The notes under the pieces were generated by a model that saw only the letters and a program-made list of their open reading frames with translations, was not told the origin of the DNA and did not search any database. Shown one piece after another: positions 1-58,128 of a stretch of DNA of 58,128 nt (position 1 is its first letter; the number at the start of each line of letters is the position of its first letter). The stretch lies in IMG/VR virus record IMGVR_UViG_3300014488_000003, positions 1-58,128 of that record; one strand, written 5' to 3'. This DNA is from a virus. A program made the position numbers and the translations under genes.

Positions 1-123
1 GCGTGAGTCCTGAGACGCTTTCTAAGATGGCGGCTAGGATTCGCAACCTCCTGACTCGCGCGGAGGACCCGCGCTTGGAGCACGAGGAGGAGCGCCAAGC
101 CTTCTTCAACAAGGCTGAGGAGC
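1..123. repeat. terminal direct repeat or circular-assembly overlap (identical to 58006-58128)
   Basis: Base-by-base comparison of the first 123 nt with the last 123 nt shows identity. Confidence 0.9.
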
Positions 124-7369: not shown

Positions 7370-7831
7370 GTGCCCAAGAAGCCCCAGCCGGAGCCCGAGG
7401 CGACCGAGGAAGAGCGCGACTACACCGTCTACCTGGAGAAGGCTCCCACCGACCTCCAGAAGCGCTTCGCCGAGTGGCTGATGGATGAAGACATCGTCGG
7501 CTACGACCCCAGCAAGGCCAAGACCAAGCAGGAAGCCTTCGAAGAGGGCGTGCGGCTGGCGACGGCCATGCGGATGGTCTTCCAGGCCTCCCCGGAGAAC
7601 AGGGCCGCCAACGAGGAACGGAAGGCCGCGCGTGCCGATGAGTCCGAGGAGGAGCCCGCGAAGCCCGCTAAGAAGGCCGCTCCGGCGAAGAAGGCCGTAA
7701 AGAAGGCCGCTGCCCCGGCCGAAGAGGAAGAGCCCGAAGAGGAGGCTCCGGCACCCAAGAAGGCGGTGGCGAAGAAGGCTCCCGTGAAGAAGCGTCGTCC
7801 GGCCTCGGATGAGGATGAGGCTCCGTTCTAA
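7370..7831 (+). CDS. PAKKA-repeat (histone-like) protein with SSB-like acidic C-terminal tip
   Basis: GTG after GAGGAGAG. Contains PAKKAAPAKKAVKKAAAP repeats and ends in DEDEAPF. Confidence 0.8.
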   Translation: MPKKPQPEPEATEEERDYTVYLEKAPTDLQKRFAEWLMDEDIVGYDPSKAKTKQEAFEEGVRLATAMRMVFQASPENRAANEERKAARADESEEEPAKPAKKAAPAKKAVKKAAAPAEEEEPEEEAPAPKKAVAKKAPVKKRRPASDEDEAPF

Positions 7832-7866
7832 CCGGCGCACGACCCCCGCGAAGGTAAGAACGGAAT

Positions 7867-7894
7867 GGGGAGGGTAATTCGCGGTGCCCTCCCC
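7867..7894 (+). terminator. stem-loop (ggggaggg ... ccctcccc)
   Basis: 8-bp GC stem with a 12-nt loop, 36 nt after the stop at 7831. Confidence 0.5.
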
Positions 7895-7898
7895 AACT

Positions 7899-7982
7899 GG
7901 GGTGGTCGGCGTAATGAGGAGCTGGTACCGAATCCACAGCGATGTGGTTGCCCTTGCGCGGGTTCGAATCCCGTCCACCCCA
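7899..7982 (+). ncRNA. non-canonical tRNA-like element 1
   Basis: 7-bp acceptor stem GGGGTGG/CCACCCC, canonical T arm GCGGG-TTCGAAT-CCCGT and discriminator A. I could not fold a D arm or a 7-nt anticodon loop by hand. Internal hairpin CCACA-GCGA-TGTGG. Confidence 0.45.
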
Positions 7983-8127
7983 CTAGGGGAAGCATTGACA
8001 TTGATGCGACTCATCGTGAGTTCCTAGGACTAGCCGACCAGGAGACGTCCTCGGTCAAAAGCGATGAGGAGAAACGGGTGAAAGTCCCGTCCCCTTCCGA
8101 TAGGTGAGTGAGAGCACCGGAGGAGAC

Positions 8128-9276
8128 ATGATAGATCTTAGCAAGATTCCCGAGGTACGGACCTCGGAGCGACAGCTGTGGAAGCGCTGTCCTTGGGCCT
8201 GGAATCAGGCTTACCGTATGGGGATGCGGTCGAAGCGCGTAAGCGATCCATTGTGGTTTGGAGAGCTTGTCCACATTGCGCTCGGGGCTTGGTATGTGGG
8301 GCCAGGGCTCCGGCGCGGTCCCCACCCGGCCGAGACCTTCGAGAAGATCAGCGCCTCCGAAGAGATGCGCTACTTCAAGACCAAGGACGCCACCGAGGAC
8401 GAGCAGGCGAAGTACGCGGACATGCGGGCGCTCGGCGTGGTGATGCTGGAGGGATACGTTGACCTCTATGGGCGGGACGAATCCTGGCACATCATCAGCC
8501 CGGAGCAGACATTCTCCTTCAACATTCCCTTCCCAACGGACTGGGAATGGGAGGAGACGCGCGAGTTCTTGGCACGGTATGTGGGAACCTATGACTTAGT
8601 GTACCGAGACCTCATCAATAACTGGATCTGGCTGGGAGAGCACAAGACTGCCAAGGTCATACGCGTTGACCATCTTCCCCTCGATGATCAGGCCGGTCCC
8701 TACTTCGCGACCGCTAAGCAGTCGCTTCTCAAGCAGGGCTTGATTTCCCCGAAGGACCACTTCAAGGGCATTATGTATAACTTCCTACGAAAGGGCCTTC
8801 CTGACCCGAGGCCGGTGGATGCCCAGGGGTACGTCGTCAATAAGCCGACGAAGGAACACTACGTCGCTGCCATTGAGGCGTACCAGGCGGATGCTCTTAC
8901 TGGCAAGGAAAGCCTGGCAAAGCTCGCACAGGTGGCCGAGGCCCTAGGCATCACGGTCCTCGGAGAGCGCTCGAAGGTGCAGCCTGCCATTCTCTTCAAG
9001 CGACACCCGGTCCCCCGTACCCGCGCGGAGCAGGCGAGTCAGCTCCAGCGGATGCAGGATGACCTGACGGTGATGGAGTACCACCGGAGAGGTCTCCTGC
9101 CTATCACCAAGACTACTCACTACAGCTGTGCTCGATACTGCGACTTCTATGATGTATGTCGTCTGCACGAGGCTAGCGGCAACTGGAAGGAGCTACGTAA
9201 GGTTAGCTTCCGCGTGGAGGACCCGTATGCGGCCCACAGGAAGTCCACAGACGAGATTGGAACGTTTGAGCTATGA
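8128..9276 (+). CDS. PD-(D/E)XK Cas4/RecB-like exonuclease
   Basis: ATG after GGAGGAG. N-terminal Cys (RCPWAW) plus C-terminal C-x3-C-x5-C (SCARYCDFYDVC) is typical of Cas4/AddB-type Fe-S nucleases. Sits in the recombination module. Confidence 0.8.
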   Translation: MIDLSKIPEVRTSERQLWKRCPWAWNQAYRMGMRSKRVSDPLWFGELVHIALGAWYVGPGLRRGPHPAETFEKISASEEMRYFKTKDATEDEQAKYADMRALGVVMLEGYVDLYGRDESWHIISPEQTFSFNIPFPTDWEWEETREFLARYVGTYDLVYRDLINNWIWLGEHKTAKVIRVDHLPLDDQAGPYFATAKQSLLKQGLISPKDHFKGIMYNFLRKGLPDPRPVDAQGYVVNKPTKEHYVAAIEAYQADALTGKESLAKLAQVAEALGITVLGERSKVQPAILFKRHPVPRTRAEQASQLQRMQDDLTVMEYHRRGLLPITKTTHYSCARYCDFYDVCRLHEASGNWKELRKVSFRVEDPYAAHRKSTDEIGTFEL

Positions 9277-16341: not shown

Positions 16342-19300
16342 AGTTCGTCTCTACGCACCACCACACCACGTTCTCGTACCAGGACGGGCACGGAACGCCG
16401 GAGGACCACGCGAAGCGGGCTGCCGAACTCGGTATGTCCGCTCTCGCGGTTACGGACCACGGCAACGTCTCGGGCCACGTCGGGCTAGAGAAGGCAGCAA
16501 CGAAGGCCGGGATCAAGCCGCTCTTCGGGCTCGAAGCCTACACCGCAATGACGGACAAGTCCAACCGAAAGTTCCATCTTACCATACTCGCGATGGACGA
16601 AGGCGGATACCGTAACCTCAATCGCCTCACCACGGACTCTTGGGAGGACTTCCACCGATGGCCGACTGTTCGCGGGAAGCACCTTGCTGCCCACCACGAG
16701 GGCCTGATAGTTCTCTCTGGGTGCAGCGACTCTCTGCTTTCCTGCTCTCTGCTGGGCGGGAAGGCGATCAGCCCGGAGAACGCCAGCTGGGACCGGGCTC
16801 TTCGATACGCGAGCCGGATGAAGGATCTCCTCGGTGATCGGTTCTATCTGGAGTGCCAGATGTTTCCGGAGCTACCGAGAACCCTCAACCTCAATACCGC
16901 CTTCGAGCGTATGGGGAAGCTCCTCAAAATCCCGCTCGTTGCGACGGCTGACGTTCACACGCTCCGCCCCGGAGACAGCAAGCTTCGAGCGCTCCTCCAC
17001 GCGGCAGGCCGGGGCAATAACACGATAGCGCAACAACTCTCCTCGTGGGAATACGATGTGCCGGACTACACCCCCATGAGCGACAAGGAGGTATACCGGC
17101 GCATGGTTGCTACCGGGCTGACCCCGGCCGCAGCACGAGAAGCCTGCCGTAACACTATGGAGATAGCAGAACGATGTAACGTAGTCCTTCCGAAGGCGAG
17201 GCAGTTCCGATACCCCTGTGCCGATCCGGTGCAGGAGCTTTGGGCTTGGCTTCGAGAGGGCTGGGCCTACCGGGTAGCACAGGGCAACCGGCGCATGGTA
17301 AAGAAGAAGGCGGAGTATGAAGCGCAGATCCGTATGGAGATGGAACGAATCCTGGAGAAGGGATTTGAGAGCTACTTCCTTCTGGCCTCTGATCTCATCA
17401 AGTTCGCCAAGAGCCAAGGAATTGCTGTTGGGCCCGGTCGTGGTTCCTCCGCAGCCTCGGTCGTTTGCTATCTTCTTCGCATCACAGAGCCTGACCCACT
17501 GGCCTTCCCGCTCACAGACTTCTCAAGGTTTGTCGATCCGACTCGCGTTGATCTACCGGACATCGACACCGACTTCGACGACTCGCGACGGCACGAGGTA
17601 CGCGCGTACGCGGTCAAGAAGTTTGGCGCGTCAAACGTCGCGAACATCGGTACCTTCACAAAATACAAGGGAAAGAACAGCCTTGATGATGTGGCGCGGG
17701 TGCACCGAATTCCGAAGGTGGATATAGAGGTAGTGAAGGGCATGATCGTGGAACGCTCGGGCGGAGACTCCCGGGCGGACGCGAGCCTGGTCGATACCTT
17801 CGAGATGTTCCCTACAGCTAAGGCGATCCTCAACAAGCACCCCGCGCTGGAGCAGGCGATCCGGCTGGAGGGCAACTACAAAGGGATGTCGGTTCACGCG
17901 GCCGGTCTCGTGATCACCGATACCCCCATCAGCGAGATATGTGCGATGTATACCCGTGAGGAACGGAAGACCGGCGAACGGCTAACGGCTGTCTCGGTCA
18001 ACAAGTATGACGCTGAATACCTGAAGCTTATGAAGTTTGATCTCCTCGGCCTCTCCACGATGGGAACTCTTTCGACTATCCTAGGATGGCTCGGCTGGAG
18101 CCTTGAAGATCTCTATGCGCTACCGTATGACGACCCTGAAACCATTGACGCTTTTAGGAGAGCGGATGTCGTCGGCATCTTCCAGTTCGAAGGACGTGCA
18201 ACCCGGCTTGTGTGTCGGGACATCAGACCCGATACGTTTCTTGACCTTATCGACATCAATGCCCTTAGTCGGCCTGGCCCGCTATTCTCGGGGACGACGG
18301 CTGAGTATATTGATGTTAAACATGGGCGTAGAGAAGCCATGCGTATACACCCTGTTATCGATAGAATCGCGAAAGGCACCCGGGGACAGATCATCTACCA
18401 AGAGCAGATCCTTCACGCGCTCGCGGAGTTCGGTGGGCTAAGCGTCGGGCGGGTACACGAGATCCGGCGCATCATCTCGCAGAAGCTCGGTGAGGCTCAG
18501 TTCAACACGAGTGCCACCGACTTCGCGGAGAACGCGATGCGGCTGCACGGGGTGAGCCGGGAGACCGCGATGAAGGTCTGGGAGCGGGTTGTCACGTCCG
18601 CCTCATACGCCTTCGTTTACTCGCACTCGCTCAGCTATACCATCATCGCCTACTGGTGCATGTACTTCAAGATCCACCACCCCGCTCAGTTTTATGCGGC
18701 CCAGCTGCAGAAGATGAAAGAGGAGAAGTGGCCCCGACTCATTAAGGACGCCGAGAAGCATGGGGTGAAGGTGCTGGGTGTACAGCCGGGACGCTCGGGC
18801 CTAAATTGGCTTCCAGTCTCCGACCACGAGATAGCTGCGGGTTGGAAGACCCTCAAGGGAATCGGCCCCTCGAAGGCTGACGCGATCATGGAGTATTTGG
18901 AGGAGCACGAGATCAAGCGGGTCGAAGACCTCTTGAATGTGCACGGGATTGGGCCCGGCATTCTCGCCAAGATGCGGGATCAGATTGAAGGAGATGATCC
19001 GTTTGGCCTCCGGGCGGTAGAGCGAGCGCTTAACGCCGTGCGTGCGGAAATCAAGGACGGCTCGATCCCCCTTAGCCCGCCCACGGTGCGGAGCGACGAC
19101 ATCCTAGACCTCCCGGGCGATAGTGACGTAACATGGATCGGAATGGTGCGGCTGAAGGAGTTCAAAGACTACATAGAGGACGAGCGGGCGCGCTCCGGCC
19201 GGACCCCCGAAGAGATCAAGCGCGAGATGTGGTGGCCCGACTTACCAACCTCCTGTGTCCTGCACTGTCACGACGATGGCGACGAAGATGTGTACGTTCG

Positions 19301-56383: not shown

Positions 56384-57031
56384 ATGACCACTATGCTGAT
56401 CACCGGAGTCAAGTGCGGCAACCACGGCCAGGAGCGCGTCTACCACCCGAGCGCAGCAGCCGTTCGAGCTTGCTACCGTCATATGACGCAGGCCCAAATG
56501 GATGATCTAGAGCACCAGATGGACATGATGGTTCAGGACGCCGAGCGTGAGGAGGAACGCCGCACGGCTGCCTATAAGGCGCAGCGTGACAAGCTCTACC
56601 CCGGCACCAACCCCTCCACCGCTCACAGGCAGTTTGTCCGGCCGGAGGAGCGCGCGAAGTCGGTGGATCAGGATGGCATGTACAGGAACCCCCAAACGAG
56701 TGAAATCTACAAGGTCCAGTGGAACCGGGGCAGCGGAGACGGCAAGCGCCTATACGCCAAGCAGCTGATCATGCACGTGGATGGAGGTCGGTGGACGCGC
56801 ATCCCGTTGGGGGACTTCCTTCCGAAGCCGGAGGAGACGCACGCTGAGTTTCAGTACGCGCCCGGGGCCATGAAGTTCATTCGGCCGGAGTGGCGCATGA
56901 CCATGGATGAGGCCAAGGCGTTCGGGGCCCTTTACGGAACGTGCCTGCGCTGCGGGCGGGACCTTACCCTTGAGGCGAGTATCGAGCGTGCCATGGGCAG
57001 CACCTGCGCAAAGAAGGCCAACTGGGGCTAA
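56384..57031 (+). CDS. DUF6011-like protein
   Basis: The C-terminal GTCLRCGRDLTLEASIERAMGSTCAKK matches the DUF6011 pattern from memory. ATG after TAGGAGG. Confidence 0.7.
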   Translation: MTTMLITGVKCGNHGQERVYHPSAAAVRACYRHMTQAQMDDLEHQMDMMVQDAEREEERRTAAYKAQRDKLYPGTNPSTAHRQFVRPEERAKSVDQDGMYRNPQTSEIYKVQWNRGSGDGKRLYAKQLIMHVDGGRWTRIPLGDFLPKPEETHAEFQYAPGAMKFIRPEWRMTMDEAKAFGALYGTCLRCGRDLTLEASIERAMGSTCAKKANWG

Positions 57032-57062
57032 AGAATCTTCAATATCAGACTTCCCTTAGCGG

Positions 57063-57079
57063 CTGCAGTCGAGTAGACT
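57063..57079 (+). promoter_or_regulatory. promoter-like motif GGCTGCAGT-N4-TAGACTGG
   Basis: Near-identical to 57593-57614. Lies inside the loop of the 57059-57064/57082-57087 stem. Confidence 0.45.
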
Positions 57080-57129
57080 GGAGCCGCAAGTCGTTAGTTG
57101 AGAACTACACAGAGGGTGAGAGTGAGGCT

Positions 57130-57570
57130 ATGCCTACTGACACAGGCACGAGCCTAGGGGCGAAGGTCAAGCTAGTCTTCGCGCTTGCGGTGTTCGGCAT
57201 CGTAGCCAGCATCGTGATCTCGGTGAAGGATCAGCCGATCGAGACGCGGATTCCGGCCGACGAAGATCTGACGGAGCAGGTAGTGCTGTCGGTCATCTGG
57301 AAGCCGGGGAGACGGGAAGACGACCCGATCAAGATCGAAGCTACGGTGGACGGCGTGATGCTGCTCCAGGATGGAGTCCCGATCGACCAGAAGGACTTCG
57401 TGCAGTCCCCGTATAACGCCATCGTAACGATTCCCAAAGGCGCGAAGGTTAGGCTCACGGCCTTCCAGCCGACCGATGGACAACTGGACTGCCTGATCGT
57501 GGTCAAGGACAGGACGAAGGATCACAGAGATCGAAGCTCCCGAGGAGCGATAACCTGCAAATATAACTAG
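57130..57570 (+). CDS. MmpS-like membrane-anchored protein
   Basis: N-terminal TM followed by a beta-rich domain with paired Cys (LDCLIVV ... AITC), as in the MmpS family. Confidence 0.6.
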   Translation: MPTDTGTSLGAKVKLVFALAVFGIVASIVISVKDQPIETRIPADEDLTEQVVLSVIWKPGRREDDPIKIEATVDGVMLLQDGVPIDQKDFVQSPYNAIVTIPKGAKVRLTAFQPTDGQLDCLIVVKDRTKDHRDRSSRGAITCKYN

Positions 57571-57594
57571 CAGGGCTTTAGGCTTCCGTTCTGG

Positions 57595-57612
57595 CTGCAG
57601 TTGGAGTAGACT
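57595..57612 (+). promoter_or_regulatory. promoter-like motif GGCTGCAGT-N5-TAGACTGG
   Basis: Lies inside the loop of the 9-bp stem ggcttccgt (57581-57589) / acggaagcc (57623-57631). Followed by the leader CGAGTGAGAGCGG. Confidence 0.45.
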
Positions 57613-57654
57613 GGTGTTCAGGACGGAAGCCCGAGTGAGAGCGGAGCGAGAAGA

Positions 57655-57807
57655 ATGACGAAAATGCAGCTGATCGAGAAGCTTCTGGTAGAGACCAACG
57701 TCCACCCTTCGCGCCACGCGAAGGTGACGGATTCTCTGATGAAGCGGAGTAAGGGCTTTCTGGAGCGCTATGTGGCCTCGCAGATTCAGCTCTCAAGGGT
57801 ATCCTGA
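57655..57807 (+). CDS. hypothetical small protein (50 aa)
   Basis: ATG 11 nt after the leader CGAGTGAGAGCGG, preceded by GAGCGAGAAGA. Confidence 0.5.
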   Translation: MTKMQLIEKLLVETNVHPSRHAKVTDSLMKRSKGFLERYVASQIQLSRVS

Positions 57808-57849
57808 TCCTCAGCCGAACAAAAGCCGGGTGGGACCGCTCGAAGAAGT

Positions 57850-57934
57850 TCCCCCGGCCTCATTCCCCTGGTTATTGGAAACAACTGTTCTTTCGGCCGA
57901 AAGCAGCCTCCAGGTTCAATTCCTGGCGGGGGAG
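57850..57934 (+). ncRNA. non-canonical tRNA-like element 2
   Basis: 7-bp acceptor stem TCCCCCG/CGGGGGA, canonical T arm CCAGG-TTCAATT-CCTGG and discriminator G. Internal hairpin CTTTC-GGCC-GAAAG. No D arm or 7-nt anticodon loop found by hand. Confidence 0.45.
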
Positions 57935-57965
57935 CGCAGATAGATCGAATAGGAAGGAAAGCCTC

Positions 57966-58128
57966 GTGAGTGAGAGCGCGAGCAACGAAGAATTCGACCT
58001 CAAGAGCGTGAGTCCTGAGACGCTTTCTAAGATGGCGGCTAGGATTCGCAACCTCCTGACTCGCGCGGAGGACCCGCGCTTGGAGCACGAGGAGGAGCGC
58101 CAAGCCTTCTTCAACAAGGCTGAGGAGC
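57966..58128 (+). CDS. DUF2786-like protein, 5' part (continues at position 3 after the overlap)
   Basis: GTG 6 nt after GGAAGGAAAG. In frame with 3..1043 through the 123-bp overlap. Confidence 0.6.
   Translation, partial: MSESASNEEFDLKSVSPETLSKMAARIRNLLTRAEDPRLEHEEERQAFFNKAEE
58006..58128. repeat. second copy of the terminal overlap (identical to 1-123)
   Basis: Same comparison. The repeat lies inside a coding region. Confidence 0.9.

Follow-up and report, generated by a model that had tools for sequence, protein, structure and literature searches.

Species 1 and 2 of phage T4 are stable RNAs that arise from a transfer RNA (tRNA) cluster, are matured by the tRNA-processing machinery and have acceptor-like ends. 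The 3' end of MALAT1 is made by a cut of ribonuclease P (RNase P) upstream of mascRNA, and tRNA-type punctuation of messenger RNA (mRNA) is also known from vertebrate long non-coding RNAs. In plant mitochondria, non-canonical cloverleaves called t-elements are cut by RNase P and ribonuclease Z (RNase Z), and these cuts define mRNA ends (Forner et al. 2007, PMC1920247). Viral structured RNAs have been surveyed on a large scale, and 'tRNAs or tRNA-like structures' receive only a generic mention there (PMC10690425). In the literature that we searched, tRNA mimics lacking an anticodon were not described for actinobacterial phages. Here, we examined a tRNA-like unit of 71 nucleotides (nt) at positions 57864-57934, on the + strand, of the virus record IMGVR_UViG_3300014488_000003; the whole stretch of 58,128 nt that was analysed is referred to as the window. 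We suggest, with a probability of roughly 0.55, that this unit is a tRNA mimic which cannot decode and which goes back to a gene of tRNA-Gln/Asn type; it would be transcribed as part of an early transcript and excised from it.

The earlier note on this DNA, made from the letters alone, had described a tRNA-like element of 84 nt that begins at 57850 and is neither a tRNA nor a plain terminator. That reading holds, since the helices are compensated in relatives and the top half is close to tRNA-Gln/Asn, but the anatomy had to be revised in part. The tRNA-like element is real and its corrected length is 71 nt, the 5' border having been placed 14 nt too far upstream. The new borders were set at 57864 and 57934 because an indel among related genomes spans TCCCC(T/C)(G/A) to the discriminator G; the RNAalifold cloverleaf, the score with the covariance model R1 and the alignment to the mascRNA family (57864-57933) are further evidence for this unit. 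The acceptor 5' strand TCCCCTG (57864-57870) pairs with CGGGGGA (57927-57933), with U1-A72 as the first pair and one U-G pair, and this helix is paired in all five orthologues. The 3' strand is followed by the discriminator G at 57934, as had been reported, and then by CGC, so that CCA is not encoded. The outer strand TCCCCCG (57850-57856), which had been taken as the acceptor 5' strand, is indeed complementary to the 3' strand, but it is the 3' arm of an upstream hairpin, hairpin H, and it mismatches in the relatives L030 and L037 when their sequences are paired by hand. A 5-bp stem with a 9-nt loop, also proposed for the interior, found no support, its 5' half being the true acceptor strand. 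A T directly precedes the unit in the window and likewise in L028, L030 and L050.

The acceptor strand is followed by a D-like mini arm (57871-57882), found by RNAalifold and by hand pairing, with the stem GTT/AAC and the loop ATTGGA. In the window this arm has a 3-bp stem only and no spacer at positions 8-9, while it is clearly 4 bp in L030 (GAGC-ATGG-GCTC); the counterpart in L037 is AGC-TAGG-GCT, and the loop contains GG in all five copies. The D arm, which had been called missing, may be represented by this small D-like stem. The position of the anticodon arm is occupied by a closed hairpin, CTG-TT-CTTTC-GGCC-GAAAG-CAG (57885-57906), as seen by folding and by comparison of the orthologues. 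It has 8 bp, a bulge and a 4-nt GGCC loop, and its palindrome CTTTC GGCC GAAAG (57890-57903), extended by CTG/CAG with a TT bulge, had been recognised correctly. The GGCC loop sits on a pyrimidine/purine stem in the window (CTTTC/GAAAG), L030 (CCTC/GAGG) and L037 (CTCC/GGAG), with stem sequences that differ, and L001 and L028 have other closed hairpins at this position. A 5-bp stem with a 7-nt loop containing U33 and an anticodon occurs in none of the five copies, in agreement with the reported lack of a 7-nt anticodon loop. Since the closed GGCC-capped hairpin replaces the anticodon arm, the RNA cannot read a codon. After a short variable region, the unit continues with the T arm CCAGG TTCAATT CCTGG (57910-57926), which is present as described and has a canonical 5-bp stem and a 7-nt TTCRANN loop. 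The GGCC palindrome was also considered as a repeated DNA site and dismissed, with only 4 loose matches in 58 kb and none in a comparable context.

The unit lies at the same place in the window and in four relatives, L001 (82% protein identity), L028 (76%), L030 (55%) and L037 (54%). In L002, L003, L027 and L031 it is absent as a clean indel of the unit alone, and it is also absent from L036, L038 and L029, the last of which lacks the upstream hairpin too. The unit is a discrete cassette between hairpin H and a leader motif. When the five copies were given to RNAalifold without guidance, a cloverleaf was returned with a 7-bp acceptor stem, the 3-bp D-like stem (4 bp in L030), the 8-bp hairpin, the short variable region and the T arm. 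Compensatory, two-sided changes were observed in 10 of the 23 pairs, which upholds the conservation of the helices in relatives, and 91% of the cells are paired, a value that falls to 45-57% if the 3' partners are shifted along by 1-3 columns. In the acceptor stem all cells (100%) are paired and three of the seven pairs (3-70, 6-67 and 7-66) carry double changes. The T stem shows changes of A-U to G-C or G-U and of C-G to U-A. U1-A72 and G73 are invariant in the five copies. In L030 the spacer between unit and leader is 118 nt long and aligns to the others at only 23-25%; an extra stretch of about 90 nt (L030 4640-4730), which no other relative has, is closed there by a long stem GGACGGG...CCCGTCC and may be another small structured RNA.

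Several observations weigh against the reading of the unit as an excised tRNA mimic. First, the unit is missing at this locus in 7 of the 12 related genomes. Second, the T stem of the L037 copy is defective, with two mismatches, and since this copy is damaged and most relatives are without the unit, the unit is dispensable and may be decaying in some lineages. Third, the identity between copies of the unit is 62-86%, and that of the 3' spacer is 65-74% (four copies, spacer of 29-34 nt); as conservation in the unit does not exceed that in the spacer, the argument depends on the way in which the unit changes. Fourth, the observed covariation was reached by none of 500 column shuffles, but the sample consists of five close orthologues, all from metagenome assemblies, and shared ancestry inflates these shuffle statistics. 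Although the copies are few, the acceptor and T stems carry double changes that are unambiguous. Fifth, the z-scores of single-sequence folds are strong for L030 (-3.65) and weak for L037 (-0.63) and the window copy (-0.77); the 85-nt stretch of the earlier note also gave -0.77, with a minimum-free-energy fold that uses the outer strand and is not significant. Finally, neither RNase P nor RNase Z requires the invariant U1-A72 and G73, a hint that selection acts on something beyond processing.

The first three of these points would also be expected of a pseudogene, i.e. a once-functional phage tRNA-Gln/Asn gene whose anticodon and D arms degenerated and which is now being lost, and the more tRNA-like version at the same place in L050 fits such a history as well. 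However, decay should break helices, and the compensated pairs and the high proportion of paired cells described above show the opposite pattern. Moreover, the closed hairpin is perfect or near-perfect in every copy, its GGCC loop is found in three lineages with differing stems, and the T loop and the GG of the D-like loop are kept. We consider a decaying pseudogene to be unlikely.

We then compared the locus with chance expectation and with known RNA families. A strict scan for a 7-bp acceptor, a 5-bp T stem and a TTCRANN loop within a total of about 60-135 nt matched two loci in the window, the region of 57864-57934 and a second tRNA-like locus of 84 nt, element 1 (7899-7982, +). Dinucleotide shuffles gave a mean of 0.11 loci, and two or more loci were reached in 3 of 300 shuffles, so that the occurrence of two such elements beyond chance, which the earlier note had estimated roughly, is borne out. 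The same 84-nt architecture that the two elements were thought to share proved to be a coincidence of length, because element 1 is truly 84 nt and the unit 71 nt. With default settings, ARAGORN called no tRNA or transfer-messenger RNA (tmRNA) gene in the window, and with introns (-i), in mitochondrial mode and in tmRNA mode it found nothing in the excerpts 7801-8150 and 57781-58030. Calls that appeared at thresholds of 80% or lower were mutually inconsistent (a tRNA-Glu with a 5-nt 'intron'; a 4-base anticodon) and were not accepted. At gathering thresholds Rfam gave no match in the window, and with E up to 10 no tRNA (RF00005) match was found in 57700-58128. The only Rfam family that aligned was RF01684 (mascRNA-menRNA), at 57864-57933 with 24.4 bits and E = 0.01 against a gathering threshold of 42.5, and this alignment takes the inner strand TCCCCTG and not TCCCCCG at 57850. 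No Rfam family covers the unit.

The region is rich in hairpins and hairpin H reads on the minus strand as a hairpin followed by a T-run, which would suit a mere transcription terminator or hairpins brought together by chance. Such an explanation is hardly tenable, as neither strand of 57000-58128 yielded a terminator-like site and neither the internal hairpin nor the T arm is followed by a U-run, while chance would supply 0.11 loci per genome and all four helices are kept in the orthologues.

Searches beyond the close relatives returned little. The covariance model R1, with which the window unit scores 91 bits, had no significant match in 12 more distant relatives, where ARAGORN instead found the tRNA-like gene of L050. 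In IMG/VR, a search with an exact 24-mer and one with the neighbouring protein alone were both empty; a 17-mer from the D-like region matched 23 IMG/VR loci, which were rejected as chance matches since none fits R1 at E up to 1. Among isolated phages, BLAST of the unit region gave nothing, or chance matches of about 37 nt within coding genes. When a family-specific pattern was run against metagenome and viral collections, the matches were limited to the L030 contig, a genuine tRNA-Asn and an odd sequence from a metagenomic tRNA cluster (L033 2664-2760, - strand). This last sequence has at its end the T arm and acceptor strand of the window unit, CCAGGTTCGAATCCTGGCGGGGGAG, whereas its 5' part is aberrant and a 5' acceptor strand is not obvious there; a disrupted tRNA or a further mimic may be present.

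The origin of the unit was examined with a pattern of the T arm, the 3' acceptor strand and G73, which was searched against one genome per prokaryotic species. The pattern matched 75 loci, of which 35 are tRNA-Gln(UUG) and 34 tRNA-Asn(GUU), nearly all in Actinomycetota, including the genera Actinomadura, Spirillospora, Streptomyces and Nocardioides. The tRNA-Gln of Nocardioides aestuarii differs from the 25-nt 3' half of the window unit by one T-loop base. Some host tRNA-Gln genes start with TCCCCCA or TCCCCTG, which are the 5' starts of the phage units, and in the host tRNA-Gln/Asn genes CCA is not encoded and the trailer begins with C, as in the phage unit. In addition, L050, a more distant IMG/VR relative, has a tRNA-like gene at the same place upstream of its DUF2786 gene. 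The D and T arms of this gene are ordinary, its anticodon stem has 7 bp, and it too carries U1-A72 and G73. Based on the near-identity of the top half and on this gene of L050, the most plausible view is that the window unit descends from a lineage of tRNA-Gln/Asn type and would have lost the decoding arm.

The same near-identity raises the question of an attachment (att) site, in which the unit would be a fragment of attP type, the 3' part of a host tRNA-Gln/Asn gene carried by the phage for integration. Three Actinomadura loci (L063, L085 and L112) were not called by ARAGORN, have no recognisable 5' half and share the downstream flank GCGGCACACGG, which was assigned to them because the 3' halves match; they resemble duplicated att sites that integrated elements leave behind, so that this tRNA end may serve integration in Actinomycetota. 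For the unit itself this explanation is very improbable. It has its own 5' acceptor strand that co-varies with the 3' strand, which an att core does not need, and the genome holds a second, different tRNA-like element. Furthermore, neither the ORFs (open reading frames) tested nor the Pfam lists for nine relatives, which cover about 20 kb surrounding the locus, showed an integrase or recombinase domain.

The unit lies between hairpin H and the leader of the next gene, and element 1 is placed in the same way, as the earlier note had seen when it located both elements upstream of leader motifs. The stem of hairpin H (57825-57858, +; GCCGGGTGGGAC / CGCTCGAAGAA / GTTCCCCCGGC) is 11 bp long and contains one bulged T, CGCTCGAAGAA forms the loop of 11 nt, and 5 nt (CTCAT) separate the hairpin from the unit. 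It aligns in 11 related phages, where the loop is nearly invariant and the inner stem pairs differ yet stay complementary, and it is found in relatives with and without the tRNA-like unit. Since a promoter-like motif lies directly upstream of H in L003, L031 and L037, H can hardly be a strong terminator. It is probably a structure of the 5' untranslated region or one that protects a 3' end, rather than a plain terminator, and it probably forms part of a transcript that runs on into the DUF2786 gene. An attenuator-like alternative pairing of H with the unit was also considered and dropped, given the outer-strand mismatches in L030 and L037 and the position of H upstream of the unit.

In the window, the promoter-like motif CTGCAGTTGGAGTAGACTG, with the -10-like hexamer TAGACT, is located at 57595-57613 (+), where it is presumed to act as a promoter. 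The motif CTGCAGTTGGNGTAGANTG is found at 57595 and, with one mismatch, at 1138, and the two window copies (57595; 1138-1156, +) fit CTGCAGTTGGNGTA(G/A)ACTG. An inverted repeat with 13-nt arms, GGCTTCCGTTCTG / CAGGACGGAAGCC (57581-57593 / 57619-57631), encloses the motif at 57595, and L029 and L037 show a comparable arrangement of motif and inverted repeat. The motif within the inverted repeat suggests a putative operator-controlled early promoter. A sigma-70-type promoter was not found in 57000-58128, nor one of the unit's own. Downstream, the leader motif GTGAGTGAGAGC (57966-57977, +) begins 31 nt after the unit, at the called GTG of the DUF2786 gene, and it is also present downstream of element 1 at 8104-8115. 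The form GAGTGAGAGC(GG) recurs at 1582, 2319, 8106, 57633 and 57968 (+). In four of the five cases the leader motif is 13-17 nt upstream of an ATG, and the fifth overlaps the called GTG of DUF2786. It precedes orthologous genes in all relatives examined and could be a translation or processing signal.

Because no own promoter or terminator-like site was found and the spacing to H and the leader is close, we infer that the unit is transcribed by read-through. An early transcript would start at the promoter-like site at 57595 and include the unit. The parts that have been kept would be those read by tRNA-processing enzymes, i.e. the acceptor with U1-A72 and G73, the T arm, the 5' T and the CCA-less trailer, and the GG of the D-like loop could form the elbow. 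The host RNase P would cut the 5' end and RNase Z the 3' end, and CCA would then be added. Such an excision would sever the transcript, so that the upstream RNA ends in hairpin H and the DUF2786 mRNA gains a processed 5' end, and it would also free a stable RNA of about 71-74 nt resembling host tRNA-Gln/Asn. In severing the transcript in this way, the unit would have its nearest working parallels in the plant-mitochondrial t-elements and the MALAT1/mascRNA module.

The freed RNA might also act in trans. The invariant U1-A72 and G73, together with the element 1 locus, in which only the anticodon domain varies, hint at a role as a decoy. According to this tentative alternative, to which we give clearly less credence than to excision from the transcript, the RNA would mimic the acceptor/T-arm half of host tRNA-Gln/Asn and bind a host factor, with the closed hairpin keeping it off the ribosome. 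Candidate targets would be a defence toxin that attacks the acceptor end of tRNAs, or GatCAB, which reads U1-A72. U1-A72, C2-G71 and G73 are invariant in six elements including that of L050, while pairs 3, 6 and 7 turn over; the top half is the part nearly identical to the host tRNAs; and the closed hairpins remain well paired with no decay. At the element 1 locus the canonical acceptor, D and T arms are kept, and the anticodon loops range from 4 to 50 nt. Phage tRNA loci are moreover known counter-defence loci (PMC13096335). Against this reading, the targets named are hypothetical, neither a tRNA-related enzyme nor a defence-related gene was found adjoining the unit, and no precedent for an anticodon-less phage decoy was found in the literature. 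The patchy presence of the unit fits an accessory counter-defence gene, but it fits the other readings equally.

Element 1 lies between a lysine/alanine-rich gene of 153 amino acids and a PD-(D/E)XK nuclease gene, and its layout is like that of the unit, with a hairpin at 7867-7894, 4 nt, the tRNA-like element and then the leader motif. Its locus is occupied in every relative examined. L001 has three genes there (17845-17919, 18021-18104 and 18108-18181), the last two 3 nt apart, and the orthologous positions are 17979-18095 in L002, about 17540-17620 in L029, 13712-13783 in L030, 18365-18446 in L031, 17906-17974 in L036, 12897-13020 in L037 and 17757-17831 in L038. The acceptor stem (GGGGTGG) and the T arm are kept and a canonical D arm usually so. 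The anticodon region is highly variable and consists of a mini-hairpin closed by a 4-nt loop, of a loop of 9, 13 or 19 nt, or of a 50-nt insert. At this locus the Rfam tRNA model scores 40-54 bits in relatives and 25.8 bits, below gathering, for the window copy.

A conserved insert of 45-50 nt, AAGGGAAUCUGGGAAGC-[variable hairpin]-GUUCGCCAACCCUCUGAG, was observed in the anticodon loop of otherwise canonical tRNA scaffolds. It is carried by L002 17979-18095, L037 12897-13020, L129 4700-4809 (identical to L131) and L130 6867-6755 (-). The acceptor stems of these scaffolds differ, and two of them are in contigs that were found by the insert motif alone. RNAalifold predicts a rod that extends the anticodon stem, with 29 pairs over the molecule, 11 of them with compensatory change, and Rfam matches the scaffolds as 'tRNA' only. 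The insert could be an undescribed small intron, a ribozyme or a protein-binding module on a tRNA scaffold. A broader, speculative proposal is that this phage clade and at least some unrelated phages use tRNA scaffolds as carriers, the window unit being a trans-acting tRNA-Gln/Asn decoy. The top half (acceptor, T and D arms) of a specific host tRNA may then be retained as the part that enzymes of host tRNA metabolism or proteins of defence hold on to, and the swapped modules may be the GGCC hairpin of the unit, the 9-19-nt loops of the element 1 locus and the 45-50-nt insert elsewhere.

The genome around these elements is that of a phage. Window positions 1-123 are identical to 58006-58128, and because of this 123-nt identity between its ends the window is a circular or terminally redundant phage genome of about 58,005 bp. 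The DUF2786 gene (P0001, 360 amino acids, + strand; called GTG start 57966, in-frame ATG 58032), which lies downstream of the unit, spans the genome junction. Besides P0001, the window phage's own, its protein has 27 relatives in public assemblies, many of them on contigs of about 57 kb whose gene order is the same. The G+C content of the window is 60%, and the + strand holds nearly all long ORFs. Pfam matches include a DnaE-type polymerase, a primase-polymerase/D5 helicase, an SNF2 helicase, a PD-(D/E)XK nuclease, ThyX, UDG and a deoxynucleotidase, and weak matches were obtained for a terminase and an SPP1-type portal. The major capsid protein shows 43% identity to its Microbacterium phage counterparts and also matches Gordonia and Mycobacterium phages. 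An archaeal-type intron, a reading raised by the 60% G+C, was dropped, as the capsid protein and the tRNA matches point to Actinomycetota. By its near-identity to actinobacterial tRNA-Gln/Asn, the unit further narrows the host of an orphan phage clade to Actinomycetota.

These findings bear on annotation as well as on phage biology. Standard annotation misses such genes: ARAGORN and Rfam call nothing in the window, yet the clade keeps non-decoding mimics at two fixed loci. If the units act in trans, they would be RNA decoys modelled on the identity half of one host tRNA in particular, and as such they would matter to the arms race over defence systems that target tRNAs. If the proposal of carriers and decoys is true, it would be an RNA-based counter-defence or host-takeover device not described before, sponging a factor that reads U1-A72/G73, such as an acceptor-end toxin or the GatCAB transamidosome.

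Finally, we compared the unit with the known systems. T4 species 1 and 2 are larger, belong to a different phage lineage and have no sequence relation to it. With Actinomycetota tRNA-Gln(UUG) and tRNA-Asn(GUU) the unit shares the T arm, the 3' acceptor strand, U1-A72 and G73 within one base, and CCA is not encoded; unlike these tRNAs, it has no 5-bp/7-nt anticodon arm and no anticodon, and its D arm is reduced to 3 bp. It resembles the tRNA-like domain of tmRNA and the 3' tRNA-like structures of plant RNA viruses as an acceptor/T-arm mimic without a decoding anticodon. However, it differs from tmRNA in that the tmRNA mode of ARAGORN was empty, there is no tag reading frame and the unit is only 71 nt, and from the plant virus structures in that it is not at the end of an RNA genome and has no pseudoknotted acceptor. 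Like mascRNA and MEN-beta (RF01684), it has a reduced cloverleaf with a shortened anticodon arm and lies just after a stable structure, which is at the 3' end in the case of mascRNA. These RNAs are vertebrate and nuclear, and with a score far below gathering the likeness is one of analogy only, not of homology. The plant-mitochondrial t-elements are likewise non-canonical cloverleaves with a GGTTCRANYCC T arm and an acceptor stem, within an mRNA precursor and adjacent to mRNA 5' or 3' ends (PMC1920247). In contrast to these organellar elements, the unit belongs to a double-stranded DNA phage of Actinomycetota, its processing is presumed, and it has a conserved closed hairpin and identity bases of tRNA-Gln/Asn type. 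If the units are processing signals, they would represent a tRNA-type punctuation of phage mRNAs, of the kind documented for plant mitochondria (PMC1920247).

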